Assembly: GCA_965197745.1 (NCBI GenBank)
Contig: CBDANS010000007.1
Location: forward strand, 242,985-306,984
Length of the DNA stretch: 64,000 nt
Source: Opitutales bacterium
GTDB taxonomy: Bacteria > Verrucomicrobiota > Verrucomicrobiia > Opitutales > PNEW01
Direction: 5' to 3'
The notes under the pieces are model-generated. The model was not told where the DNA came from. It did not search any database and worked only from the letters and a program-made list of their open reading frames with translations. Position 1 is the first letter of the stretch. Each line of letters starts with the position of its first letter. Below are positions 590 through 19,086 of the stretch, one piece after another. Position numbers and translations under genes: made by a program.

Positions 590-1350
590 ATAATTGAATC
601 CTGATGGAGAATAACCATAATTGATTTTATTTCTTTTGGTAGATTTCCGATCCTCGGTCAATCCAACTTATACACCTTATTATTGCTTTGTTTGTCAGAA
701 AGGCATCATTCTAACGGATTTTCTATCTTCTCCCTTTGCTTATTGACTGATAGCCTTATTTTTTCCAAAAATGGGCTTTAATTGTGTTTGGCAGTTATCT
801 TAAATGATAAATGGTCATAATATTCTTTAAAAATTAATAATGATTCTTATTGAATAATTATAAATTAGCTACATTAACGATGATCATCAGTAGAAATGTT
901 TACCGGATATGTATATCGATTTTGTTAACGGACAGAACCGATGGCGATTGTTGGTATCTAATTAACCTGCCAGAAATGGCATGAAATACCAGAGTGATTC
1001 TGCAGGTTCTTTTCGAGAGCTATAATAGTTTTCAGTATCCAATAAACGTCGAACTAAATTTTGAAAGATAAGTGAACAAACCCGGCCCGATGATCGTAAT
1101 TGATCACCTGCACAATCTTATTCCAAGAGACCTTCACTTGGATAGCTTTTTTATGATTAATAAAGCTGACACGAGAAGCATTTTGAGAACATCAATTCAC
1201 AGTTTCTAATCTGAATTTTTTATCATTTACCTAGACAAGAGAAGGGTCCAAAGCATTAAGATTAATTGAGAATTATAGTATGAAAATTGTGTATCGAATG
1301 CATGCTCTAGAGAAGAGCAGGCCTAGCTCTTTATTGTGGGAGGCAACCGA

Positions 1351-4300
1351 ATGATTAATCAAGGGAAGCGCCCCATAGCGATCATAGGAATAGGTTGCCG
1401 GTTTCCTGGTGGTGCAAAGAACTCAGCCTCTTTCTGGACCTCATTGCGCAATGGCCAGAATGCTATAGTCGAAGTTCCTGAGGATCGCTGGAATCTACAG
1501 CGATTTTATGATCCCAATCCTCAATTGCCGGGTAAAATGACAACCCGTTGGGGGGGGTTCCTCGATACCATTGATCAGTTTGATGCTCAATTCTTTGGAA
1601 TTTCGCCCCGCGAAGCATTGAGGATGGATCCTCAGCAGAGATGGCTGCTGGAAGTGGCATGGGAGGCACTCGAAGATGGAGGATTAGCTCCCGATCAAGT
1701 AGCAGGGTCACGCACCGGTGTTTTTGTCGGCATTTCAAGCAATGATTATGCGAATATCCAAATGAAAGGGCCCCAGGATGTTGATATGTATACCAACAGT
1801 GGGAGCACCCTGAGCATAGCTTCTGGCAGAATTTCTTATTTGTTTGATTTAAAGGGTCCAAGCCTGTCGGTTGATACCGCATGTTCATCGGCTCTTGTTG
1901 CCGTAAATCTTGCCTGCAATAGTATCTGGGATGGGCAGTGTGACACAGCTCTGGCAGGTGGAGTAAATGCACTGCTAACCCCTGATTCTTCTATAGGATT
2001 CAGCAAAGCGTCCATGCTGTCACCTGACGGCCGGTGTTACACCTTCGATGAACGGGCAAATGGTTATGTGCGTGGTGAAGGAGCGGGGTTAATCGTGCTC
2101 AAGCCGTTGGACGATGCACTGGAAGATGAAGATCCCATTTATGCCGTAATTCGCTCTAGCATTGTGAATCAAGATGGTCGCACGAGTTCAATGACGGTGC
2201 CGGGGCAATTTTCTCAGGAAGCTATGTTGAACGAAGCTTATGAACAAGCGGGAATCTCGCCGTCGAGAGTTTGTTACATAGAAGCGCATGGCACGGGAAC
2301 ACCGGTAGGGGACCCGATTGAAGTTCTTGCCTTAGGGAATATTTTGTCCAAGGGAAGAAAAGCTGAAGATAAATGTGTAATTGGGTCGGTTAAAACGAAT
2401 ATTGGTCATTTAGAATCTGCATCAGGTATAGCGGGTCTTATAAAAGCGGCACTGGTTCTAAAATATAAAGAGATTCCTCCTAATTTACATTTTGAAACCC
2501 CCAATCCCCATATTCCCTTTGAAAAACTTAAACTACGGGTTCCAACAAAGTTAGAGTCAATCCCGAAAGGATCAGACCCGGCGGTGGTCGCCGTTAACTC
2601 TTTTGGTTTTGGAGGCACTAATGCCCATGTGGTATTAGAAGAAGCGCCGGTCATCGCTAAAAGACGGAAAAAAATAAATAAAGATGATGCCCCCAGGCCC
2701 TACCTTGTCCCTCTATCGGGAAAAGGACAGCAGTCATTAAAAAAGAGTGCTGAGAATCTGGTTGATTTACTATCCGGACAATCGAATGGCACTGAAATAT
2801 TCCTGCCTGATCTTGCCCACACGGCAAGCTTGCGCAAGGGGCACCATGACCATCGATTAGCACTCGTTGCGTGTTCGGAAAATGAAGTTATAGTAAAGCT
2901 TAATGGGTATCTTTCCGAGAATAAGGTGAAAGGCCTTGTTGAAGGAAGAGCAAAAACTGAAAATCAAAAAGAAATTGTTTTTATATTCACCGGTCAGGGT
3001 CCGCAATGGTGGGCGATGGGGCGTGAACTTTTGGAAAAAGATCCGTTATTTCGTAAAAAGATAGAAAAGTGTGACAAACTGTTGAGCGAATACACCTCCT
3101 GGTCACTCGTTGAAGAATTATCCCGAGATGAAGCCAGTTCCAGGATAGACGATACATCCGTTGCACAACCGGCGATTTTCGCTTTACAAATAGCCTTAGC
3201 TGATTGGTGGAAGGCGAGGGGCGTGTCCCCCACCTGTGTTATCGGGCATAGTGTAGGCGAGGTTGCTGCCGCTTACTGTTCCGGAATCTATACCCTCAAC
3301 GATGCCATCAAGATAATATATCACCGCAGTCACTTACAAGCAACAACGCGCGGCTCGGGACGTATGGTAGTGGTGGCCATTTCACCGGATAAAGCTAAGG
3401 CCTTAATTCAGGGGTTTGAAGATCAAGTGACGATTTCCGCGATCAACAGTCCGGGCCTTGTGACTTTAGCCGGAGATACAAAAGTTTTGGAATCAATAAT
3501 CGAACCGCTTGAAAAAGATCAGGTATTTATCCGCTGGCTGGATGTCGATTATGCCTTCCATACAAATAAGATGGACCCTATTAAGGACGATTTACTTCAA
3601 GTCCTTTCAGAGATCAGACCACGCGCTTCAAAAATTCCCTATTACTCAACCGTCAGCGGAGAGGTTATGGACGGAAAGAAGTTAGACGCCAGCTATTGGT
3701 GGCGTAATATACGTGAAACCGTACTTTTTGGTCCGGCGATAGACGTTATTATTAGTAAGGATCACGACCTTTACCTGGAATTGGGCCCGCATCCTTCGCA
3801 TTCCAGTTCTGTCTTAGAATGTCTGGCCCACAAAGGGAAGAATGGATCGGTTTTGCCCTCGTTGCGACGAAAAGAGTCGGATCAGCAGACTTTGCTTGAA
3901 ACTCTAGCCACTTTATATACCCGGGGATATCCCATCCAATGGGATGCGCTCTATGGAAAGGAAGGACAATTTGTTCAATTGCCATCCTACCCCTGGAAGT
4001 CTGAACGACTATGGTTAGAATCACCCGTCTCTGAAGAGTACCGTTTTGGATCCATTGTGCATCCCCTCCTCGGGGAAAAAGTAAATGCTCCGAGCCCAAC
4101 ATGGGAATGCGAGCTTGATCCCCGCGCCTTACCCTACCTCGCCGATCACAGACTTCACGATTCCATGGTATTTCCAGGCGCCGCCTATGTTGAGATCGCG
4201 CTCGCGGCCCTTAATGAGCTATATCCCAATGAACCTTTTGTCATTGAAGATATCAAAATTCTTAAAGGGTTGTTCATGTCAGAAGACGGTGTCATTACCA

Positions 4301-7300
4301 TTCAAATGGTCTGTGATAAAACTGATGATTCCTTTAATATATTCAGTTCTACGGATACGACTGCTGGGGAATGGGAAATTCACGCCCAGGGACGCTATCA
4401 GAAATTAGCACCGCGTGATCCTGGCAATTTGGCTGTCGATCAAATTAAAGACGCGATGGAGGAGGAGATCGATCACGCCAAAATTTATTCAGATTTTGAT
4501 GATGTTGGATATCAGTTCGGTCCCTGCTTCAGAGAAGTACAAAAAATCTGGAGAAAAGATGGGGAATCGTTGGCTGAGATTCAGGTAACAGACGCGGTTT
4601 TAGAAGATATGGAGTCAAACTTCTTTCAACCTGCAGTTTTGGATGCCTGCTTTCAAAGTGGCAAGGAATCCAGAGTTAAGGATGAAAACAGAAAGGCACG
4701 CGACAATTTTTATATGCCTATCGCTCTGAAAAGAGTGAGGTTCTTTAAAAGTCCGACTCCCCGTCTTTGGTGTTATACGCAATTAGTGAGCGACGAAGGA
4801 GACCGCGTTGAATATGATCTTAAAGTCGCCAATGACGATGAATCTATCATCGCCGAGATCAAAGGCTTTTGCGTTCAGCGGGTAGATCAGTCTGAGACAA
4901 AAGCAGAAGAGGATCTCGAAAATTGCTATTATCAATTTCACTGGCATCCCTCATCGCTTCCCGGAGCGCGGCGTGACCCAATTGAACTCATAAGTCCCGA
5001 ACGGCTTATAGAAGTATTGGATCCTGAAATTATCCCTACCTACGATAAATATAATCTTGATGGTTACGTTAGTGATTTTATGCCTCAAATGGAAACTTTG
5101 AGCTTTAATTTCATTCTCACGGCTCTCCGAAAAATGGGATGGAAGCCGGCAATAGGTGATCGGGTATCGATTGACAGTTTAATCGAAGAATTGGGCATCA
5201 TGGAGCAACATCACCGCTTATTGCAGCATTCCATATTTGAGACATTGAAAAAAGAAGCGGTGATTCAAGCGACCGAGGATGGAGAATGGGAAGTAGCCCG
5301 TACCCCTGATTCATTAAATTTAGAAGATCTATGCAGTGCCCTAAGAAATAACTTTCCTCACTTATGGGCGGAAATGGATTTGCTCATAGATTGTGGGTAT
5401 GTTCTGGCAGAAGTGCTTACGGGTGAAAAAGATCCGCTCGATGTCATTTTTCCTGCCGGTGATCAGAAAAAAATTGAAAGTTTTTATAAGGATTCTTCTG
5501 ACTTTCAGGCCTACAACAGCTTGCTCCAAAAGGCCATCGACAAGCTTGCCAGTGAGCTGCCAGAAAAGGGCAAGCTGCGTATTCTGGAAATTGGAAGTGG
5601 CACCGGTTCTTTGACGGAAAGCTTGCTTGAAGTCTTATCCCCCGATCGTACCGAATATTACTTTACCGACATATCTCCCTTATTCATCGCATCGGCGAAA
5701 GAAAATTTTAAAAATTATGATTTTATAGAATATAGTATTCTCGATATTGAGAAACCACCGGGAGAGCAGAAATTTGATCTCCAATCATACGATTTGGTTT
5801 TAGCTACGAATGTCCTGCACGCCACTAAAGATTTAAAGCAAACACTCCGTCATATTAATCAGCTGATGACGGAAGAAGGCCTTTTGCTATTTCTCGAAGT
5901 TACGACTAAAAGGTTATTTTTGGATCTGGTTTTTGGTCTGCTTCCCGGCTGGTGGAGATATTCAGACGATGAATTGCGGACGACACATGCTTTGATTACT
6001 CGCCAGGAGTGGGAGGGGCTTCTTAATGAAAGTGGTTTTCGAAACGTAAATTCCTTTGTCAATACAATGGAGGAAAGCCACGCCAATCAATCCGTGTTCT
6101 TAGCCAACGCCTCCGAGCTTTTAACGGAGATGGATCGCAAAGAAGCCATCGATGAATCCTCAGATAAGAATAAAACCTGGTTGATTTTCGCTGATCAAAG
6201 CGGTTTTGCCGAGTCTCTAGTGAATCAAATGGAAGAGAGGGATAGCACATGTATCATGGTTACCCCGGGTGAATCCTTTGTCGAGGTGGGAGAACGCTGC
6301 TACCAGATTCATCCCGAACAATTGCAAGACATGGAGGATCTATTCACTCATCTCGAGCTTGATCCGAATGCCCTGCAAGGAATTATTCACATGTGGAGCC
6401 TTGACCATCCCACCGCTGATATAACAACACCTGAATCTCTCGAACTTGCTCAACAAACAGGATGCCTCAATGTTTTAAATCTCATTCAAACGCTTGTGAA
6501 ATCAGAGCCCGATCCCGCACCACGGGTTTGGATGATCACGCACGGCATGCAGTTGGTTTCCGATACGGATAGAAACGAACGCATTGCTTCAGCTCCTTTA
6601 ATCGGGCTCGCCCGGGTCGCCAATAATGAGCATTGGGATTATCACTGGACAGCTATTGATCTGGAATCTTCGAGCACTCCATTGGAATTAGAATTTTTAG
6701 TTAATGAGATCTGTTCTGCGGACGATGAATTGGAAATTGCTTACCGTGGAGGGGAGCGGTTTGTTAATCGAATAGAGAAAACGGTTAAGGATGAAATACC
6801 AGCAAGAACAAAAGATGCGGTAAGACGTGATGGGGTAATTCCTTACCGACTCGAGATACCGACTCCCGGAATTCTTAATAATTTACGATTAAATGAGACA
6901 GAGCGCAGCGCGCCAGGACCTCAGGAAATAGAAATAAAAGTTGCTGCGGTCGGCCTGAACTTCCGTGACGTGATGAAAGTTTTAGGCATGTACCCGGGTA
7001 ACAGCAGAGATTTGAAGTGGCTTGGGGACGAATGTTCGGGAACCGTTGTTTCTGTTGGTGAAGAAGTGAAAAATTTCCAGGTGGGTGATGAAGTTATAGG
7101 CATGATGGTTCCCTATTGTTGTCGATCTTACGCCATCGTGAATGAGGCACTTGTTTTTCACAAACCTTCCAAGCAGTCATTCGAAGAGGCCGCGACCCTG
7201 CCGATTGTTTTCCTCACCGCGCATTATACTTTGAACCATTTAGCCCACCTTCGTAAAGGTGAGAAAATATTAATACACGCGGGTGCAGGCGGTGTCGGCC

Positions 7301-10300
7301 AGGCTGCTATTCAAATGGCTAAGCACATCGGGGCCGAGATTTTTGCAACCGCAGGTTCACCTGAAAAACGTGAGTTTCTTAAAAGCCAGGGAATAGCCCA
7401 TGTCATGGACGACAGGACATTGGATTTTGCTGATGAAGTCATGGAAATTACTGAAGGGAAAGGTGTCGATGTCGTATTGAACCAATTGGCTGGTGACTTT
7501 ATCACGAAGAGTTTATCGGTGCTCGCTCCCTTTGGAAGGTTTCTGGAAATCGGGAAAGTAGATATCTATCAAAACACAAAAATTGGGCTCGAACCATTTA
7601 AGAAGAACCTGACCTATTTTGCCGTTGATCTTTCGAAACATATAGAAGAACGACCCGAGATAATTACCATGATGCTTCAAGAGTTATCGGTAATGTTTGA
7701 AAGAGAAGAGCTGAAGCCATTACCGTTTAAAGCATTTCCTATCACACAAGCAGTCGAGGCTTTCCGTTATTTTGCTCAATCGAAACACATCGGTAAAAAT
7801 GTACTCTCACTGCAAGAGGATTCTATCCTTGTTGGCTTGCCTTCCGAGCAAAAAACACTGTTCCGTGCTGATGGAACATACCTTATCACCGGTGGATTAG
7901 GGGGATTCGGTCTGGAAGTTGCCAAGTGGATGGTAAAATCAGGGGCGAAAAATTTAGTCCTCATGGGACGTTCGGGTGCATCGACCGATGATGCCATGGA
8001 AGCTTTACAGACGATGCGAAATAACGGCGCCCAGGTGGTAGTGGCCAAAGCCGATGTAGTCATCCATGACGATGTAGAACGCGTCTTAAACAAGATCGAT
8101 GAGGAAATGCCTCCTTTAAAGGGGGTCATTCATGCTGCTATGGTTTTGGATGATGGATTCCTTGTTCAGATAGACACTGAGAAATTCAAAAAGGTACTGC
8201 GTCCAAAAATGATAGGCGCCTGGCATTTACATCAGCTGACTCAGCAGATGCATATAGATTTCTTCGTGCTCTTTTCTTCTGCTTCGTCAATGCTTGGACC
8301 GAACGGACAGGGAAACTATGCTTCGGCCAATTTCTTCCTGGATGCGCTCGCCCATTATCGCAATGCCATGGGTCTTCATGCCCTCACGGTCAACTGGGGT
8401 GCATTATCCGAAGCCGGATACGTGGCCCGGAATGAAAACGTTGCCAAGTATCTGGATATTCTGGGCCTGGAAAGTTTCACTCCGCAGGAAGCACTCAGCA
8501 TTTTTGCTCAAATCCTGCCGAAAAATCCAGTTCAACTGGGAGCTTCCCATGTGAACTGGAAAACGATTTCAAAGATAAATCCACAGATGGGTAGTTCGAA
8601 GTTGTTCTCCCTGGTTATAAGCCAGGATGCACTTTCAGAAAAGACCGGAGCCCACGCCCATTCATTCAGGCCTCAACTTCTTGGCGCTGCGCCTGAAGAC
8701 CGGCATAAAATGGTAGAGAATTATATAAGTGAACAGGTAGCTCAAGTCTTTGGCACCTCAGCCGATAAAATTGATCGCGATACACCCCTGACCACGATTG
8801 GCCTCGATTCATTGATGGCCATAGAGTTGATGAACCGCCTGGAATCTAATTTAGGAATTAATTTGCCCATGGGTAAATTCCTGCAAGGGCCGAATATTTC
8901 TCAACTTGCCATTCCCGTTCTCGAATTACTGGTTAAGTCTGATTCCGGTTCGGATACAGCGAGTTCGCCTCGAAATGTAACGGCGGGAGAAGAATTGATG
9001 GAGTTTCCCTTATCCCAGGGACAACGAGCGCTCTGGTTTTTACACCGCCTCGCGCCAAGCAGCGCTGCCTACAACCTGGTCTTCAGTTCGCGCATTACTC
9101 CTTATGTCGACATTGACATTATGAAAAAGGCTTTTGCCCGTATCTTTCATTCCCATCCGATGCTCGACATTGTTATCTCCACGGTCGATGGAGAACCCAT
9201 GCAGACATTGCAAAAAGGACGCAGTGTCGATTTTCGAGAACACGATGCAACCCAACTTAGCGATGATGAACTTAAGGCATTGCTCGTAGAGCACGCGCAT
9301 AAACCCTTCAATCTTCAAACCGGCCCGGTTATCCGTTTGGAGCTGTTCCGTACTGCGACGGGGTCCCATGTGACGCAACTGGCTATGCACCACATTGTTT
9401 CCGATGCATGGTCTATCGTGATTGTTCTCAACGAGCTCATGGAAACTTACTTGGCCATCAAGGCCGGTCGTGAGCCTGACGTTCAACCCCCTGAATTCAG
9501 GTATTCAGACTATGTAAACTGGCAGAAAAACCTCTTGCAAAGTCCTGAAGCTGATCGTTTGGGCAGTTATTGGTATGAATATCTCGCAGACTCATCGATG
9601 GTCCTTGATTTACCCACGGACCACCCGCGTCCACCAGTCCAGTCTTTTAACGGCGCGACCTTTGGTTTCAAACTTGAAGAGGACCTTACGCAGAAGGTTT
9701 TGAAACTGGCTGAGGAGAAAAGAGTCACCCTTTATACTACCCTTCTGTCCGTATTTAATATTTTAATGCATCGTTATTGTAATCAAGAGGACATTATCAT
9801 CGGGAGTCCTTTATCCGGACGTATAAATAAAGAATTTCATCATATTACCGGTTATTTTATCAATCCCGTTGCGTTGCGTAGCAGAATGGGTGATGACCCC
9901 GCTTATTTTGATTACCTGGATCGTGTCTATCAATCGGTAATTGGCGCTTTAGAAAATCAGGATTATCCATTTCCACTTCTTGTCGATCGACTTAAAGTAA
10001 AGCGTGATCCCAGTCGATCGCCTATATTCCAGGCCAGCTTTTCTATGGAGAGAACACCTGGAGTTGATGATCAGGGCATAGCTGTATTTCTTATTGGTCA
10101 GGGCGGGCATAAATTTAATGCCGAAGACATGGTGATCGAGTCGATAGATCTTACTTTGCGCATGGCACAATTTGAGATTACACTCGTGGTGGAAGAAGCA
10201 GGGGGCAATATTTACGGCTGCTGGCAATATAACAGCGATCTGTTCGAGCCTGAAACGATTAGTCGTCTTAGCGGTTTTTATAAACAGTTGCTTAACGAAA

Positions 10301-13300
10301 TCGTATCTCATCCTGAGAAAAAGATTTCCGAGTTTAATTTGCTTTCAGCGGATGAAGAAAAACAGGAAATAGTAGACTGGAACGCAACTGCCTCTAAATA
10401 TCCTGAGCATTTATGCCTCCACCATATTATCTCTGACCAGTCAGCTAAAACACCCCATTCAACGGCGATCAGTTTCGATGGGGAATCCATGACTTATGAG
10501 GAATTGGAGAGAAAATCAAACGGCCTGGCCCTAGCATTACATCAGAAAGGTATCGGTCCGGACACCCCCGTTGGGCTCTATCATGAACGGTCCATGAACA
10601 TGGTTGTCGGGTTACTAGGTATACTTAAAGCTGGTGGTTGTTATGTGCCTCTGGATCCAGAATTCCCACCCCTCAGGCTGGAACAGATGCTCGACAATGC
10701 AAACCCATCTGTGGTGGTTACACAAAGCGAACTGGCGAGTGCCTTACCTCAAGGTCAATGGGAATCTATCTTTGTCGAAGAAGTGAGTGAGGCGGAGACA
10801 ACACCTCAAGTCGATGGCCTGAATCCCGATTCGCTTGCTTATATTATTTATACATCCGGGTCTACAGGCGTGCCAAAGGGTGTGGAAATTTCCCATCAGT
10901 CTCTGGTTAACTTTTTATATTCAATGCAGAGGGAGCCAGGTTTAAGTGATGAGGATAAACTTTTAGCAGTAACGACACTTTCTTTTGATATTTCAGGATT
11001 GGAACTCTACCTGCCACTGATTTCCGGTGCTCAGGTTATTCTGGCCTCTCGTAAAGTCGCAGCTGATGGCAGACAGCTGGCAGCTCTCATAAAAAGCACC
11101 AATCCCACCATTATACAGGCTACCCCGGCTACCTGGCAGATGTTACTGGATTCGGGCTGGTACGGAAAACAAAACCTTCGGATACTTTGTGGAGGTGAAC
11201 CCCTACCACCGGATTTGGCGGAGCATTTATGTGAAATGGGTGCGGAAGTTTGGAATCTTTATGGTCCGACCGAAACAACCATCTGGTCTACGGCGTCACA
11301 AATTGAAAAAGGTGATGATGTCGTCTCTATCGGCCGCCCCATCGCCAATACAAAAATATACATTTTAGATGAGGAAGAAAAACCCCTTCCCACGGGCTTT
11401 GCCGGCAATCTTTACATTGGCGGTGACGGTCTGGCCCGAGGCTATCACAAACAACCTGAGCTCACTAAGGAATCATTTGTTGAGTTGTCGTTAAATCAGC
11501 AGGAAACTGAGCGCGTATACAAAACCGGTGACTTAGCGCGCTATTTATCCGATGGCTCAATTGAATGCATTGGTCGCCGCGACTCTCAAATTAAACTGCG
11601 TGGTCACCGTATCGAGCTAAGTGAAATCGAAACGGTGCTTCGTGATCATCCCGCTGTAAAAAGTGCTTTGGTCCTGATGCGCAAAGATATGCCGGGAGGT
11701 CCGGGTATTGCCGCTTATATTATACCCATGGAAAATAACGACAGATTAGTTCCGGATCTGCGATCACACCTCACTGAGCGCTTGCCTCAATATATGCAGC
11801 CTTCTGCTTATATGGTCCTCGATGAATTCCCGCTCACCCCCAATAATAAAATTGACCGCAATCATCTCCCGCTTCCCTCTTTAAAGCGTTCCGATTTGCG
11901 AACAGATTATTTGGCACCCCAAACGCCGACTGAGAAGATTCTCTGTGATATATTAAATCAGGCTTTCAAGAGTGATAAGATTGGCATTCACGACAATTTC
12001 TTCGAGTTGGGTGGCGATTCACTAATGGCGGTGGAAATATTGTCGAGTATCACTTCCGCTTTTAACCGTGAATTACCGATTGAGGTCTTTTTGCGCAATC
12101 CTACGGTGGAAAGTCTGGGCTATTATTTTGAACTCACTCCCGAAAATATTGAGGTGAATTCCTCCCCCCATAAGAATGGAGATTCAAAGGTTAATAACAT
12201 TGATGACTTGTTTAAAAGCAGTTATCTGGATATCGAGCATGTAAATGGTAAAAATGGGGATCGCACTAAGTTCCCTGAGGTGGATGCCGTTGCTCTTGCT
12301 TACATCCCCGATGCTTTCCTCCCCCTCACGGGTCTTTCCAAAGATGAAATTTCACGTCAGTGGTTTCAACATCAGCCTTTTGTCAGCAATTACTACGAGA
12401 CTCCATTTGGAAAAATCGCTATCGTCATGTTACCGCGGTTAGGAGCTGAACTTTACAAAGATCAAGTGCCTCTCGGTGATAATATCTTAAGCTCCTTAAA
12501 ATTGGCTGCCGATATGGGGGCCAGTACCGTATCCCTGACCGGCCTCATCCCCTCGGCTACTGACTATGGAAGAAGTATCTCACACTGGATAAACGGCCAC
12601 GACAATTTACCCGCCATAACTACGGGGCACGCCACAACCACAGCAACGATCGTGAAAACGATTACCGGTATGCTTGAGCAGACAATGCGTGACTTCAGTG
12701 AGGAAAAAATTGCCATCGTCGGTTTGGGATCCATCGGCTATGCCACACTGCGACTTATGCTTGAAGTGATGCCGCATCCGGTTGAGCTTATCCTCTGTGA
12801 TCTTTACCGAAAAGCGGACATTCTTGAGAATATTAGAAGTGAACTGATTGAAAAGGTTGGCTTTAAAGGAGCTATCCGTGTGGTGACAACGCGAGGCCAA
12901 TTGCCCGACGCCATATACGATGCATCTTTTGTCCTTGGGGCCAGCAATGTTCCTGGTATCCTGGATATCAATCGCCTGCGTCCCGGCACCTTATTGGTAG
13001 ACGATTCATTTCCACCTTGTTTCCGTCTCACCGATGCGATCAGACGAATTGAAGAAGAGCAGGACATTCTCTTTACAACCGGTGGGTTGTTGCGCTGTTC
13101 GGAAGAAATTAAAGAGACTATATATCTGCCGGATGGAGCCGGTGAGTTATTCTCTAAATTAGGGGTTGATAAAGTGCAGAGACTGGCTGGACGCGACCCA
13201 CGCGAAATCACGGGATGTATCCTTTCCAGTCTCTTAACCGGACACGAACCGAATATTTCTACTACGATTGGACCAGTGGAAATCAAGGACTCACTCGCTC

Positions 13301-13434
13301 ACTATAAACTTCTCGAAAAGTTGGGACTGGAGTCAGCAAGACCGCAATGTGAAGGCTTCTTTATCGATGACGTAATTATCGAACGATTCAAGAAACGCAA
13401 CGGATCACATACCGTTCAGACTGAATCCGTTTGA
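1351..13434 (+). CDS. Hybrid type I polyketide synthase / nonribosomal peptide synthetase: KS-AT-DH-cMT-(psiKR)-ER-KR-ACP-C-A(Gly)-PCP-AAR-like reductase domain
   Basis: The 4032-aa track ORF starts at GTG 1336. I prefer ATG 1351, which is preceded by GGGAGG (1338-1343) with a 7-nt spacer. Motifs, in track numbering: KS DTACSS (C183), EAHGTGT (H318), NIGHLE (H358). AT GHSVGE (S639) and YAFH (739-742). DH HPLLG / [17 protein letters not shown] (H938) and DACFQ (D1103). cMT [8 protein letters not shown] (1417-1424). ER [11 protein letters not shown] (1981-). KR [8 protein letters not shown] (2185-), LDD (2271-2273), Y2328. ACP GLDSL (S2492). C MHHIVSD (2684-2690). A [12 protein letters not shown] (3172-) and NNKIDR (K3505). 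PCP GGDSL (S3562). Terminal Rossmann motif VGLGSIG (3795-3801). Confidence 0.95.
   Translation: [4027 protein letters not shown]
1366..2646 (+). other. Ketosynthase (KS) domain of the megasynthase
   Basis: The Cys-His-His triad is intact: DTACSS (C183, nt 1882-1884), [15 protein letters not shown]. It ends with [13 protein letters not shown]. Confidence 0.9.
2971..3921 (+). other. Acyltransferase (AT) domain, probably malonyl-specific
   Basis: [14 protein letters not shown] (S639), and YAFH at the specificity motif. The xAFH form leans malonyl (HAFH) rather than methylmalonyl (YASH). Confidence 0.85.
4048..4890 (+). other. Dehydratase (DH) domain
   Basis: HPLLG start, catalytic His in [17 protein letters not shown] (HxxxDxxxxP variant of HxxxGxxxxP), and a DxxxQ motif (LDACFQ). 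Confidence 0.8.
5353..6105 (+). other. C-methyltransferase (cMT) domain, SAM-dependent
   Basis: SAM motif I [14 protein letters not shown] (nt 5581-), followed by [12 protein letters not shown] and EEGLLLFLE motifs. It sits between DH and ER as in FAS and HR-PKS enzymes. Confidence 0.8.
6838..7815 (+). other. Enoylreductase (ER) domain, MDR family
   Basis: [15 protein letters not shown] start, NADPH motif [18 protein letters not shown], and C-terminal HIGKNVL. Confidence 0.85.
7861..8430 (+). other. Ketoreductase (KR) catalytic subdomain, B-type
   Basis: [19 protein letters not shown] Rossmann motif, LDD motif (HAAMVLDDG), catalytic Tyr in GQGNYASAN. Confidence 0.85.
8698..8925 (+). other. 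Acyl carrier protein (ACP) domain
   Basis: The phosphopantetheine attachment site [13 protein letters not shown] is verified at nt 8809-8811 (tca = S2492). Confidence 0.85.
8998..10320 (+). other. NRPS condensation (C) domain
   Basis: [12 protein letters not shown] start and active site [10 protein letters not shown] (HHxxxD). Confidence 0.85.
10393..11865 (+). other. NRPS adenylation (A) domain, predicted glycine-activating
   Basis: Core motifs [61 protein letters not shown]. Hand extraction of the 10-residue code against GrsA numbering gives D-I-L-Q-L-G-L-I-W-K. Confidence 0.8.
11923..12135 (+). other. Peptidyl carrier protein (PCP/T) domain
   Basis: [14 protein letters not shown], with Ser3562 verified at nt 12019-12021. 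Confidence 0.85.
12268..13431 (+). other. C-terminal Rossmann domain resembling long-chain acyl-ACP reductase (AAR); putative non-canonical reductive release domain
   Basis: [29 protein letters not shown] (GxGxxG, nt 12721-), [31 protein letters not shown], and [17 protein letters not shown] (Cys3961, nt 13216-13218). These follow, in order, the recalled AAR blocks [11 protein letters not shown] / [14 protein letters not shown] / [10 protein letters not shown]...VLIDGGYP / MFACFAEAMLLEFEG. There is no TE GxSxG motif and no SDR R-domain GxTGFLG motif. Confidence 0.55.
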
Positions 13435-13458: not shown

Positions 13459-14580
13459 GTGGAGTCGACATTGCTGCATCCGTTGTGCGGAAGCAATCTG
13501 ATTACATTTCTACGTGCTTTTGCCCGCCCGCGTCCTCTTTGTTGGCAAAAGCTGCCTGTGGGGTTTATCGCGGCAGCATCAGTTTTGGGACGATTTCCCT
13601 TTTATCAGTTCGAACGCTTATCACAAGCACGTGCTATTATACAAACCCCATTACCAGCGGAACCCATTTTTATCATTGGACACTGGCGTAGCGGCACGAC
13701 ACACCTGCACAATCTCATCAGTCAGGATTCACAATTTGGATCGATCAGTTTCCTTCAAACTGCATTGCCCTGGGACTTTATCGGCCAGGTCAATTTATCT
13801 CAGAAAATTCTCCGTAAGAAACTCCCCGACGATCGGGGGATGGACAAGGTAAAACTGACAATCGATTCCCCACAAGAAGAAGAGATGGCTCTGGGAAATA
13901 TGGGTCCACTATGTTATTATTACTGTTATTATTTTCCCCGGGAAATTGAAGAACACTTTAATCGGGCGGTCCTATTCAACGGAGTCTCATCAAGCGAAAT
14001 AAAAAACTTTGAAAATAATTACTGCTATCTTTTAAAAAAACTGACCCTGTTTCATGGAGATAAGAAAAAGCTGCTTTTAAAAAATCCCGCAAACACCGGT
14101 CGCATACGTTGGCTGCGGAGTATTTTTCCAGGCGCTAAGTTCATTCATATTCATCGCAATCCTTACACGGTCTATGCCTCAACCCTAAAGCATTTTAATA
14201 GAACCATGACGACTTTCGCCTGGCAGCCCTATGAGGGAATTGACTTTAATAAAATTACCCTGCGTCACTATCGCCTTCTCATGCAGCGTTACTTGGATGA
14301 GCGATCAACTATCCCCCCGGAAAACTTAATTGAGGTATCTATGGATGAAGTAGAGAAAGATGCGCCCGGGGTGATCGATAACATATACCGAAAATTTTCT
14401 TTGTCCAATCGGGATAGGGCGCTTGAAGCAATTAATTCATACTGCGAAGGACAGCGAAATTACCGTAAGAACAGTTATGTATTAAGCGGGGATCAAGTTG
14501 CTAATATAAATAAACACTGGGACTTTACGTTGAAAGAATATGATTACGGAATGCCGGGTGAAATAAAGGTGGAAAACTGA
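13459..14580 (+). CDS. Sulfotransferase family protein (PAPS-dependent, Sulfotransfer_3-like)
   Basis: 373 aa. 5'-PSB loop IFIIGHWRSGTTHLHNL and 3'-PB region FIHIHRNPYTVYAS. GTG start with AAGGA 8 nt upstream, only 24 nt after the megasynthase stop. Confidence 0.8.
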   Translation: MESTLLHPLCGSNLITFLRAFARPRPLCWQKLPVGFIAAASVLGRFPFYQFERLSQARAIIQTPLPAEPIFIIGHWRSGTTHLHNLISQDSQFGSISFLQTALPWDFIGQVNLSQKILRKKLPDDRGMDKVKLTIDSPQEEEMALGNMGPLCYYYCYYFPREIEEHFNRAVLFNGVSSSEIKNFENNYCYLLKKLTLFHGDKKKLLLKNPANTGRIRWLRSIFPGAKFIHIHRNPYTVYASTLKHFNRTMTTFAWQPYEGIDFNKITLRHYRLLMQRYLDERSTIPPENLIEVSMDEVEKDAPGVIDNIYRKFSLSNRDRALEAINSYCEGQRNYRKNSYVLSGDQVANINKHWDFTLKEYDYGMPGEIKVEN

Positions 14581-16655: not shown

Positions 16656-18134
16656 CTAGCTTCTACCCTTGAAAAACCGTTTCGGTGAAAAATATTTTTC
16701 CGGGTAATAATCCGGACAATCGATGTCCAGGATCTTGAAAACAATAAACTGAGTGGCGAGAAAGGATACCCCTGAACCCGAACCTGCCATACCGCCTACG
16801 ATATAAAGGCGCTTATTGTCCTGGAGACCAATGAGCGGAAATTCATCAGGCGTCATCCCCACCGTGCCGCTCCACTCATTGGTAACGCGTATCCGGGTTA
16901 TTCCAAAAAGGGTTTTTAAAAAAGCAGACACGTAATTGGTAATAAATCGTGAGGGCTGATTCAGCCCCGCTTCATGATCGGGGACTTTAGACATATCCGA
17001 ACCAAATAGGATACCGTCCTTTGTCCTGCTGAAAAACATTTCCGGACTGCTGATTGCTACTCCCTGTTGCATCGTTCCGTTATCACTGAGTCCATAGGCT
17101 GCTTGTGTCTGACCCACATTTAAAATGTTATGAAATTCCTTAAAGAGGGTAGCAGTATGAGACTCCGTTGCGTTGAGGACATATTTTGCCTGAATTGTCC
17201 CGCGATCGGTATGAATTTCATAAAAGTCACCGATGTCTTTCACCGCATTGACTTTAGTCTGCGAGTAAAATTCTACGTTGGGTGATTGAATGGCTATTTG
17301 CAATAGGCCCCAAATCCACTTGGCGGGATTCCAATTTGCGGTGCCTTGTGAATGCCCGGCATCGTAAGCTGTTTTTATACCTGCTTTTTCCATCGCCTCC
17401 TCAGGGGAGATTCTTATCCAGTCAGAAAATCCCGTCTCTTCACCCATTCGCTGGGCGGCAAGGGGTTTCCCCTGATTTTTTTCATCGGTGGCCCAGACCC
17501 AACCTTTTTTGATATAGTCACACTCAATTCCCTCTGTTTTCACCGTGTCTTCAATCATCTGATTGCTTTTGATTCCGGCAGTTACATAGGGTTTGGCAAA
17601 TTCATGAGCGATACTTATTCGCTCCGCTTCATTTAATTCCGGCCGTGTTCTCTCTAGGTTTTTCAACACCGTGCTGTGGACATAATAGTAATAGCGACCC
17701 ATCGTTACAACGCCGGCATTGCGACCCCCCGAGCCGCTCGCCGCCTCGTTCATTTCAAGTATGACCATCCTGGAATCTCCGTGTTTCGACCAGTGATAGG
17801 CAGCGCCCGCGCCAGCAAAGCCGGCACCGATAACCACAACCTGAGCTTTATCCGGTAATTTAACATTTGGATTCCCTTCCCAAGGATGATTTTCCAACGG
17901 ATTTTTGTCACGTAACCAGACAGGTGTTCTCGATACCGGATTGTTAAACTGAACCCAGGTCAGAGCATCAGGAATGGTCCGCCACATGGATTTTATCGAC
18001 CAGCATAAAAAGAGCAGCAGCTTTTGAATCAGTAATCTACCCGGGTACATAGTGTTAATCCAGGTTCTGGCTGCACGGAATTCGTGTCGGCGCATACCAA
18101 AAATTAATTTAAAAAAAATAAATATTCTATTCAT
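16656..18134 (-). CDS. FAD-dependent oxidoreductase (DAO family) with a hydrophobic N-terminus
   Basis: Dinucleotide motif [17 protein letters not shown]. The track ORF extends to 18221, but ATG 18134 overlaps the upstream gene's stop by 8 nt (TATGAATAG) and is the more plausible start. The start remains uncertain. Confidence 0.7.
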
Positions 18135-19086
18135 ATGTGTTCGCCAAGTCCTTCCATAAACTTTTTTGACGTTCATTGGCGGTGGATGGCAATTGTATTC
18201 TAATGACCGCATAGAGGTCACCGCGTTTCCCTTTGGCCTTCAGTAAACCAAGACTTTTAAGTCGAAATTTACGACCGTTTTCACAACCGGGAGGGACTTT
18301 AATAGCAACGCGTTGCTTGAGAGCAGGTATTTTAACAGTCGTCCCGAGAACCGCATCCCAGGGTGGAATTTCCAGATCATAATACAAGTCTGCTTCTTTA
18401 ACCGTAAAGTCGGGATGTTTGGCAAAGAGAACACGGAGTAGAATATCACCTGCCTGCCCATCCGCAGATCCTGTCCGACCTTTGCCGGCCAGACGAATAA
18501 GTTTACCTTCATGGACACCTTCAGGAATCTTGACGCGATAAGTTTCAGCTTTTTTTCCAGGCTCCCGACGCATGCTAACTTCTCTCACCGATCCGCTATT
18601 TACCTCCTCGAGGGTTACCATGATATCCGCTTTGATAACACTACCCCGTGTCGCTTTTTTATTACGGGTGAAACCGCTCGGGTCCGTGAATCCACTTTTT
18701 CGATTTCTCCCGCCCATTTCGCCGGAAGAGGATCCACCCCCAAAGAAAGCCTCGAAGAAATCACTGAATCCAGTGCCCCCAAATCGATATTCAAAACCGC
18801 CCTTTGGCCCACCTGATCCACGATTCCAACCCGGGGGAGGGCGAAATTCAGCTCCATGCTCCCAATTTGGACCTAGAGCATCATACTTTTTACGTTTTTG
18901 AGGGTCGCTTAATACCTCATATGCTTCATTGATTTGCTTAAATTTTTCTTCGGACTTTGATTTATTCTTCGCATGGTCAGGGTGATACTGGCGGGCCAGT
19001 TTTCGAAAAGCCTTTTTTATGGCCTCCTGGCTGGCCTCCTTAGCTATTCCCAAGGTATCGTAGTAGTCTTTAAATTTAATGGCCAT
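18127..19086 (-). CDS. cbpA: DnaJ-domain co-chaperone, CbpA-like (J domain, G/F-rich region and C-terminal domains; no zinc finger)
   Basis: [35 protein letters not shown] (HPD motif), a G/F-rich linker, and no CxxCxGxG repeats. Confidence 0.85.

Follow-up and report, generated by a model that had tools for sequence, protein, structure and literature searches.

A PKS-NRPS megasynthase from an Opitutales bacterium ends in an AAR-like domain of the TAD family

The 64,000-nt stretch of DNA analyzed here, referred to below as the window, comes from an Opitutales bacterium of the Verrucomicrobiota (contig CBDANS010000007.1, positions 242,985–306,984 of the forward strand) and carries on its plus strand a gene for a megasynthase that combines polyketide synthase (PKS) and nonribosomal peptide synthetase (NRPS) modules in one polypeptide. 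According to the list of open reading frames (ORFs), the gene spans 1336–13434 and encodes 4032 aa, with a TGA stop codon at 13432–13434. Pfam searches, together with homology for the last domain, gave the domain order KS-AT-DH-cMT-ER-KR-ACP-C-A-PCP-TAD, in which PCP denotes the peptidyl carrier protein and TAD a terminal amidation domain. The TAD (12217–13431, plus strand; residues ~3628–4032) has the fold of an acyl-ACP reductase (AAR), with an N-terminal lobe that reaches to a TTG motif and a Rossmann lobe behind it, and it lies at the C-terminus immediately behind the PCP (...C-A-PCP-TAD-stop), as in CarI, VatR and HcaD. The PCP is the second PP-binding domain of the protein (11923–12135, plus strand; PP-binding matched by Pfam in two stretches; domain edges approximate); its phosphopantetheine attachment site, Ser3562 (12019–12021, plus strand), was located in the motif GGDSL(MAV). 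A low-complexity linker of ~27 residues, translated as TPENIEVNSSPHKNGDSKVNNIDDLFK (12136–12216, plus strand), joins the PCP to the TAD.

We compared the terminal domain with known sequences and structures using an earlier alignment (A1), which includes the PCP and accordingly returned carrier-protein matches for that region in the PDB search, and a TAD-only profile (A2) of 17 relatives; invariance of residues was judged in an alignment of 44 sequences. The best sequence matches in the PDB were 9E4S, 9E4U, 9E4X, 9E50 and 9E56, which are named ‘Amino acid adenylation domain protein’, and Foldseek labels these entries, released on 2025-02-26, as ‘TAD from Carmabin Biosynthetic Pathway’. The phmmer match to 9E4S had an E-value of 8.3e-89 at ~48% identity (query 47–427, chain 39–416), and the profile search retrieved the CarI TAD at E 2.4e-163. 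An AlphaFold model of the terminal domain, computed from the 44-sequence alignment (pLDDT 92.6, pTM 0.92), was matched to the CarI TAD (9E4S_A) by Foldseek with a TM-score of 0.93 and a root-mean-square deviation of 1.9 Å; the model has two lobes, a macrodomain-like N-terminal lobe and a Rossmann lobe. It is close to certain that the terminal ~400 residues belong to the TAD family. This family was introduced by Rankin, Khare, Gerwick, Sherman, Gerwick and Smith as a ~400-residue domain that ends CarI, VatR and HcaD of the carmabin, vatiamide and hectoramide pathways; the CarI TAD combines a macrodomain-like N-lobe with a Rossmann C-lobe, and AAR resembles it most closely in structure (Rankin et al., bioRxiv 10.1101/2024.10.28.620694). 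A preliminary description of this DNA, made from the sequence alone, had put forward an AAR-like domain behind a PCP as a candidate for an undescribed off-loading solution. That claim does not hold: such domains were described in 2024–25, complete with crystal structures, the resemblance to AAR and the equivalent Cys, and the domain in the window is a further member.

All signature motifs of the TAD are present in the window, namely TTG, GxGxxG, the NAD-selective Asp, the DDSxP loop and the Cys. The lobe-junction motif Thr3762-Thr3763-Gly3764 (12619–12627, plus strand; within ITTGH, residues 3761–3765) was placed by the 9E4S alignment and has T and G columns that are invariant or near-invariant; the corresponding Thr2042-Thr-Gly2044 of CarI touches the catalytic Cys (bioRxiv 10.1101/2024.10.28.620694). 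The dinucleotide-binding loop GLGSIG (residues 3796–3801; 12721–12738, plus strand), with invariant G, S and G columns, corresponds to CarI 2076–2081. Asp3822, the acidic residue that ends β2 in LILCD (12799–12801, plus strand), falls in an invariant column (D194/D178) and corresponds to CarI Asp2102, which excludes a 2’-phosphate and so discriminates against NADP(H) and CoA in favour of NAD(H) (bioRxiv 10.1101/2024.10.28.620694). The loop Asp3889-Asp3890-Ser-Phe-Pro3893 (DDSFP; 13000–13014, plus strand) matches Asp2169-Asp2170-Ser-Gly-cisPro2173 of CarI, where Asp2170 stacks on the nicotinamide and has been suggested to favour NAD+ (bioRxiv 10.1101/2024.10.28.620694). The D, S and P of this loop are invariant in the 44 sequences, and its fourth position is variable, with F, Y, A, G or S in family members, a range that includes the Phe of the window. 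At the residue after the invariant Asp (Asp3890; 13003–13005), the window and CarI have Asp, AAR has Gly and PigE has Val, and Tyr occupies the column in the closest group of relatives at ~48% identity (P0003–P0007), which includes a Verrucomicrobiota protein. Judged by the alignment, the residue in this column could mark sub-functional classes.

The predicted acyl-accepting nucleophile is Cys3961 (13216–13218, plus strand), which is invariant in 44 of 44 relatives. In the phmmer alignment it pairs with chain residue 352 of 9E4S, which is Cys2238 once the offset is checked against the published numbering. Cys2238 of CarI is itself invariant, starts a helix in the inter-lobe cleft and coincides spatially with AAR Cys294 (bioRxiv 10.1101/2024.10.28.620694). 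The extent of the domain differs slightly from the one first proposed: K3645 had been placed correctly at nt 12268, but the alignment to the CarI structure and the first strand of the model put the probable start of the folded domain ~17 residues further N-terminal, at about nt 12217 (SSYLDIEH...). Comparison with the Opitutales orthologues gave a pN of 0.08 against a saturated pS of 0.77 for the TAD. The domain is functional by this measure, and is under strong purifying selection. An ORF on the minus strand inside the TAD (12804–13286; 160 aa, TTG start) was rejected as spurious, given the strong homology in the plus frame and the purifying selection.

The likeness to AAR noted in the preliminary description was borne out by several methods. 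Aligned by hhalign, the TAD profile of 17 relatives matched AAR residues 75–341 with a probability of 94.5% (E 7.4e-8; 217 aligned columns) and paired REITGC(3961)ILSSLLT of the window with RQMFAC(294)FAEAMLL of AAR, so that Cys3961, given at nt 13216–13218 from the outset, does fall in the catalytic-Cys column. The AAR numbering was fixed by an exact match of the AAR C-terminus to 6JZU residues 249–341 (...RQMFAC294FAEAMLLEFEG...). The AAR chains 6JZU, 6JZQ and 6JZZ were also found by HMMER with the TAD-only profile at E 0.004 over AAR residues 75–248. The AAR sequence blocks given in the preliminary description proved genuine, four of them within the HMMER alignment to 6JZU 75–248 and the fifth within the exact match over 249–341. 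In Foldseek, the AAR structures ranked right after the TAD entries (E 4e-16, TM-score 0.61/0.71), a clear similarity that is exceeded by that to the CarI TAD. The AAR equivalog model of NCBIfam, TIGR04058, gave an ordered but weak and partial match (20 bits, E 3.6e-4, model positions 126–275), far below the family cutoff of 449.7, which the window domain does not reach.

Other characters likewise separate the domain from AAR proper. AAR is a stand-alone enzyme, whereas the window domain is fused to a PCP, and no ADO was found among the annotated flanking genes (to ~28 kb). In the hhalign alignment the NADPH-type cofactor site of AAR is absent: the places held by Thr/Arg and Gly in AAR are taken by Asp3822 and Asp3890 in the window. 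NAD(P)H had been proposed as the cofactor; NAD(H) is more likely than NADPH, with Asp3822 matching CarI Asp2102. The closest sequence relative outside the TADs is the N-terminal reductase of PigE, whose NCBIfam model NF053554 matched at E 4e-12 (3e-9 with the TAD profile). At the two positions that separate TADs from the proven reductases AAR and PigE, those of Asp3822 and Asp3890, the window sides with the TADs at both.

No other type of release domain was detected. Pfam searches with E-values up to 10 revealed neither a thioesterase (TE; PF00975, GxSxG) nor a short-chain dehydrogenase/reductase (SDR)-type NAD_binding_4 reductase in the last 434 aa, and the sole Pfam match in the last ~430 aa was a sub-threshold 2-Hacid_dh_C (E 0.17). 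The phmmer and profile searches returned no R-domain structure among the PDB sequence matches, and Foldseek returned only TADs, AAR and Rossmann dehydrogenases, with no TE fold. These Pfam, PDB and fold searches agree with the preliminary description that the megasynthase ends without a TE or an SDR-type reductase. Leucine, tryptophan, formate, malate and shikimate dehydrogenases appeared in Foldseek at TM-scores below 0.45, and an identity as a shikimate, amino-acid or malic-enzyme dehydrogenase was rejected, the matches being limited to TM-scores below 0.45 or E-values above 1e-3. An assignment to another Rossmann family lacking the Cys, which had been named as the refuting outcome, was not obtained.

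We then surveyed the distribution of the domain by running HMMER exhaustively against 1.84 billion representatives; counts refer to clusters at 50% identity. At E ≤ 1e-3 the TAD matched 900 clusters, of which 478 remained at E ≤ 1e-30. Among the 150 best representatives, 97 were at least 1000 residues long, and the TAD stood at the extreme C-terminus in nearly all; in a word-indexed search, PP-binding (PF00550) preceded the TAD in 50 of the 120 best matches. In these ~480 clusters the domain closes an NRPS or PKS protein in nearly every case. Rankin et al. had counted 757 TAD homologues across bacterial phyla by BLAST and a sequence-similarity network, mostly at NRPS C-termini, with one network cluster consisting mostly of Verrucomicrobiota (bioRxiv 10.1101/2024.10.28.620694). 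Unusual architectures were seen among P0010, P0019, P0038/P0043, P0058 and P0077: a TAD together with a PF00975 thioesterase (P0010), a TubC_N docking domain with a stand-alone TAD, PilZ-PCP-TAD, a PKS terminus of the form KR-ACP-TAD, and a match from a eukaryotic transcriptome. In addition, P0177, P0221 and P0209 continue for ~300–430 residues beyond the TAD.

The closest relatives come from two Opitutales (Verrucomicrobiota) metagenome-assembled genomes, L002 and L003, whose TADs are 87–88% identical to that of the window in fully syntenic surroundings and were the sole matches of the single-protein scan. Two further loci, L001 (TAD 62% identical) and L004 (48%), encode the same KS-AT-DH-MT-ER-KR-ACP-C-A-PCP-TAD order. 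The adenylation domain of the window megasynthase (10435–11850, plus strand; residues ~3034–3505; Pfam AMP-binding and AMP-binding_C) was read at the Stachelhaus positions, which were anchored on FDISGLE, IIQATPA, ILCGGE, NLYGPTETTIWS and QIKLRG and lie within 10984–11289. The resulting code, D-I-L-Q-L-G-L-I-W-K, is that of glycine; DILQLGLIWK specifies Gly under the established Stachelhaus code. Because the A domain is glycine-specific, the substrate bound to the PCP is an acyl-glycyl thioester, as had been supposed. The code is DILQLGLIWK or DILQFGLVWK in all five PKS-NRPS-TAD loci (the window and L001–L004, with TAD identities of 48–88%; ~8913–9220 in L001 and ~8793–9100 in L004), and, from these codes, the clade seems to be fixed for glycine at the terminus.

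The active-site strings DTACSS, GHSVGE and YAFH were located in the megasynthase. Read from the sequence, its reductive PKS domains look intact: the KR carries LDD and YASAN, the ER carries HAGAGGVG, and the motifs of the DH and MT are present. The order KS-AT-DH-cMT-ER-KR-ACP-C-A-PCP-X is that of a fungal-type highly reducing PKS-NRPS in a single polypeptide. The megasynthase lacks both a loading module and a partner gene upstream of it, there being no ORF longer than 55 aa in nt 1–1335, which suggests that the PKS module is used iteratively in this Opitutales bacterium. In the 1.3 kb upstream of the gene, promoter and terminator patterns were no more frequent than chance would give, and Rfam gave no match anywhere in the window.

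Directly downstream lies a sulfotransferase gene (13459–14580, plus strand; 373 aa; Sulfotransfer_3, Pfam E 1.4e-29). Its GTG start codon is 24 nt past the megasynthase stop and is preceded at 8 nt by AAGGA, and the two genes are probably co-transcribed. NCBIfam has no named family for this protein; its PDB matches, 2ZQ5 and 2Z6V, were deposited as ‘Putative uncharacterized protein’ and are presumably mycobacterial Stf-type sulfotransferases. The gene is syntenic in L002 and L003 (11190–12311), and in L001 a 50%-identical orthologue (11528–12553) follows the 62%-identical TAD. Since the sulfotransferase is kept in L001 although all other neighbours there differ, the functional unit appears to be a conserved two-gene cassette of megasynthase and sulfotransferase. 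The gene after the P0006 TAD is not a sulfotransferase.

The remaining annotated genes around the cassette are housekeeping-like: Acs, a DAO-type oxidoreductase, DnaJ, TrpRS, HisG and RpsA. The DAO-family FAD oxidoreductase (16656–18221, minus strand) lies two genes downstream, and its nearest NCBIfam models are aminophosphonate, pipecolate, sarcosine and glycine oxidases; the start listed for this ORF runs into the DnaJ gene and was probably set too far upstream. The gene is syntenic in the Opitutales metagenome-assembled genomes and absent near the L001 cassette. It is conceivable that a DAO-type amine oxidase supplies ammonia to the TAD, but the gene is not conserved with the cassette, which speaks for coincidence.

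AAR is known to act by ping-pong chemistry through a Cys acyl-enzyme. By analogy, the acyl-glycyl chain on Ser3562 of the PCP would enter the inter-lobe cleft of the TAD through the dinucleotide tunnel and be transthioesterified to Cys3961. This putative first step is well supported by the alignment of the AAR Cys, by AAR chemistry and by data on CarI, in which Cys2238 cross-links to the PCP phosphopantetheine in competition with NADH and, in the crystal, is disulfide-linked to dephospho-CoA (bioRxiv 10.1101/2024.10.28.620694). NAD(H) would then fill the same tunnel and bring its nicotinamide beside the acyl-Cys; the conservation of GLGSIG, Asp3822 and Asp3890 makes NAD(H), rather than NADPH, the most likely cofactor. 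In the third step, NAD-assisted release would yield a primary amide, with polyketide-acyl-Gly-NH2 as the predicted product, and the sulfotransferase next door would probably tailor it. Amide release is the weakest link, being drawn by analogy only from the three cases in which the product of a TAD pathway is known: carmabin, vatiamide E/F and hectoramide B each carry a terminal CONH2 (bioRxiv 10.1101/2024.10.28.620694). For the mechanism as a whole, acylation of Cys3961 followed by amidative release as acyl-Gly-NH2, we estimate a probability of roughly 0.6.

Several observations weigh against this mechanism. Neither the CarI nor the VatR TAD released anything in vitro when given NAD(H), metals, ammonia or any amino acid (bioRxiv 10.1101/2024.10.28.620694), and no later paper demonstrating TAD activity turned up in the library of papers searched. 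The correlation with amides comes from three cyanobacterial domains that are 85–95% identical to one another, whereas the window domain shares only ~48% identity with them. The closest enzymes whose function has been proven, AAR and PigE's N-terminal domain, are aldehyde-making thioester reductases. Finally, the reductive PKS domains all look intact, and a fully reduced acyl-glycinamide is therefore predicted to offer the sulfotransferase no obvious hydroxyl.

This last point, a conserved sulfotransferase that the amide model leaves unexplained, keeps alive the reading that the domain acts like AAR or PigE: hydride from NAD(P)H would attack the acyl-Cys3961 to give an N-acyl-aminoacetaldehyde, perhaps reduced to an alcohol and then sulfated. 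Such a partner needs a hydroxyl, and a fully reducing PKS, glycine and an amide provide none that is obvious, although a site for sulfation could arise instead through iterative programming of the PKS or be brought in by a hydroxylated starter. All relatives of proven chemistry are Cys acyl-enzyme thioester reductases, and in CarI the nicotinamide C4 lies 4 Å from the Cys thiol, NADH binds slightly more tightly than NAD+, and Rankin et al. themselves consider a route of reduction, amination and re-oxidation (bioRxiv 10.1101/2024.10.28.620694). Set against this, the E-value of 8e-89 puts the window domain deep among the TADs and AAR is distant, TIGR04058 scoring 20 bits where 449.7 are required; amides, and not aldehydes, are what TAD pathways of known product yield; and the Asp near nicotinamide N1 (Asp3890), suggested to favour NAD+, is missing from AAR and PigE. 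Moreover, NADH brought about no release from the CarI and VatR TADs in vitro (bioRxiv 10.1101/2024.10.28.620694). We consider reduction unlikely, while granting it real weight, and the aldehyde release of the preliminary description is disfavoured, not refuted. More doubtful by a further step is the specific proposal that the TAD of the verrucomicrobial cassette is a true AAR-like reductase producing N-acyl-glycinal or glycinol, whose hydroxyl is sulfated by the partner. If it were so, the ‘TAD’ family would cover more than one release chemistry, and this would be the first catalytically tractable member, its substrate being a simple acyl-glycyl thioester.

Two other routes appear improbable. 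The chain might be captured on Cys3961 and then hydrolysed to the free acid or handed to an unlinked partner enzyme, with the dinucleotide in a structural or regulatory role. The inactivity of isolated TADs under many conditions (bioRxiv 10.1101/2024.10.28.620694) would fit this, as would the TAD-thioesterase fusion (P0010) and the ~300–430 extra residues in P0177, P0221 and P0209. However, both the Cys and the loop that contacts the nicotinamide are invariant, strong purifying selection acts on them, the published neighbourhood analysis saw no consistently co-occurring partner (bioRxiv 10.1101/2024.10.28.620694), and the amide products need some explanation. Slightly less probable still is an amidation that consumes the glycine, in which NAD+ would oxidise the glycyl Cα–N bond and the N-acyl-imine would be hydrolysed to R-CONH2 and glyoxylate. 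Terminal Gly is conserved in all clade members examined (the window and L001–L004), the TAD binds NAD+, with a conserved Asp that may favour the oxidised form, and glycine-derived terminal amides are an established strategy (bioRxiv 10.1101/2024.10.28.620694). Nevertheless, this route is inference only, and it is not the general TAD mechanism, because the amide N of carmabin, vatiamide and hectoramide is extra to the last residue, which is not glycine. Amidative release of the acyl-glycyl chain from Cys3961 remains our preferred reading.

TADs are a widespread and recently recognised off-loading device, and the instance in the window leaves knowledge of the family unchanged. It does offer a compact system for TAD chemistry, with one megasynthase, one tailoring gene and orthologues at 48–88% identity. 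Its glycine terminus is easily mimicked synthetically, whereas the original TAD authors lacked authentic substrates. For annotation, an AAR-like domain after a PCP should be called a TAD, not a new domain type.

Among known systems, the SDR-type R/TR domains (AusA R, 4F6L; PF07993) share with the window domain the place after the last carrier protein and a nicotinamide-dependent, non-hydrolytic off-loading, which is the chemistry that the preliminary description had proposed, but their fold is unrelated and they work through a Thr/Tyr/Lys triad, with no covalent intermediate on a Cys. MtaG of myxothiazol likewise produces a terminal primary amide from a last module that loads glycine, and the glycine-consuming route considered above would be a dehydrogenase version of its logic; MtaG, however, uses an embedded monooxygenase and then a TE, and Pfam found neither domain in the window megasynthase. 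PigE of the prodigiosin MAP pathway (PDB 4PPM) is a natural-product enzyme with an AAR-like domain and a conserved Cys (Cys296), but it is fused to a pyridoxal phosphate-dependent aminotransferase instead of a carrier protein, converts a thioester to an aldehyde for transamination, and lacks both Asp residues of the TAD, with His/Arg at the place of Asp3822 and Val at that of Asp3890 (D-V-A-L-P loop). AAR of Synechococcus elongatus (6JZQ, 6JZU, 6JZY, 6JZZ) has a homologous fold, the Cys column, TTG(N/H), the Rossmann lobe and a carrier-protein thioester substrate; its motifs FTTGN, LILT-AR and D-G-G-Y-P stand against ITTGH, LILCD and DDSFP in the window, and it differs in being stand-alone, in using NADPH, in passing an aldehyde to ADO and in having a very divergent N-terminal lobe. 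The CarI-type TAD is the nearest, with the same two-lobed fold, position behind the PCP, linker length (26 residues in CarI, ~27 in the window), full set of motifs and Cys. The window domain differs from it in being only ~48% identical and in reading DDSFP where CarI reads DDSGP. The CarI-type hosts are marine cyanobacteria, in contrast to the Opitutales bacterium here, and CarI-type assembly lines are multi-module NRPSs that end in an N-methylated residue, whereas the window TAD completes a single-polypeptide fully reducing PKS with a Gly module and is accompanied by a conserved sulfotransferase.

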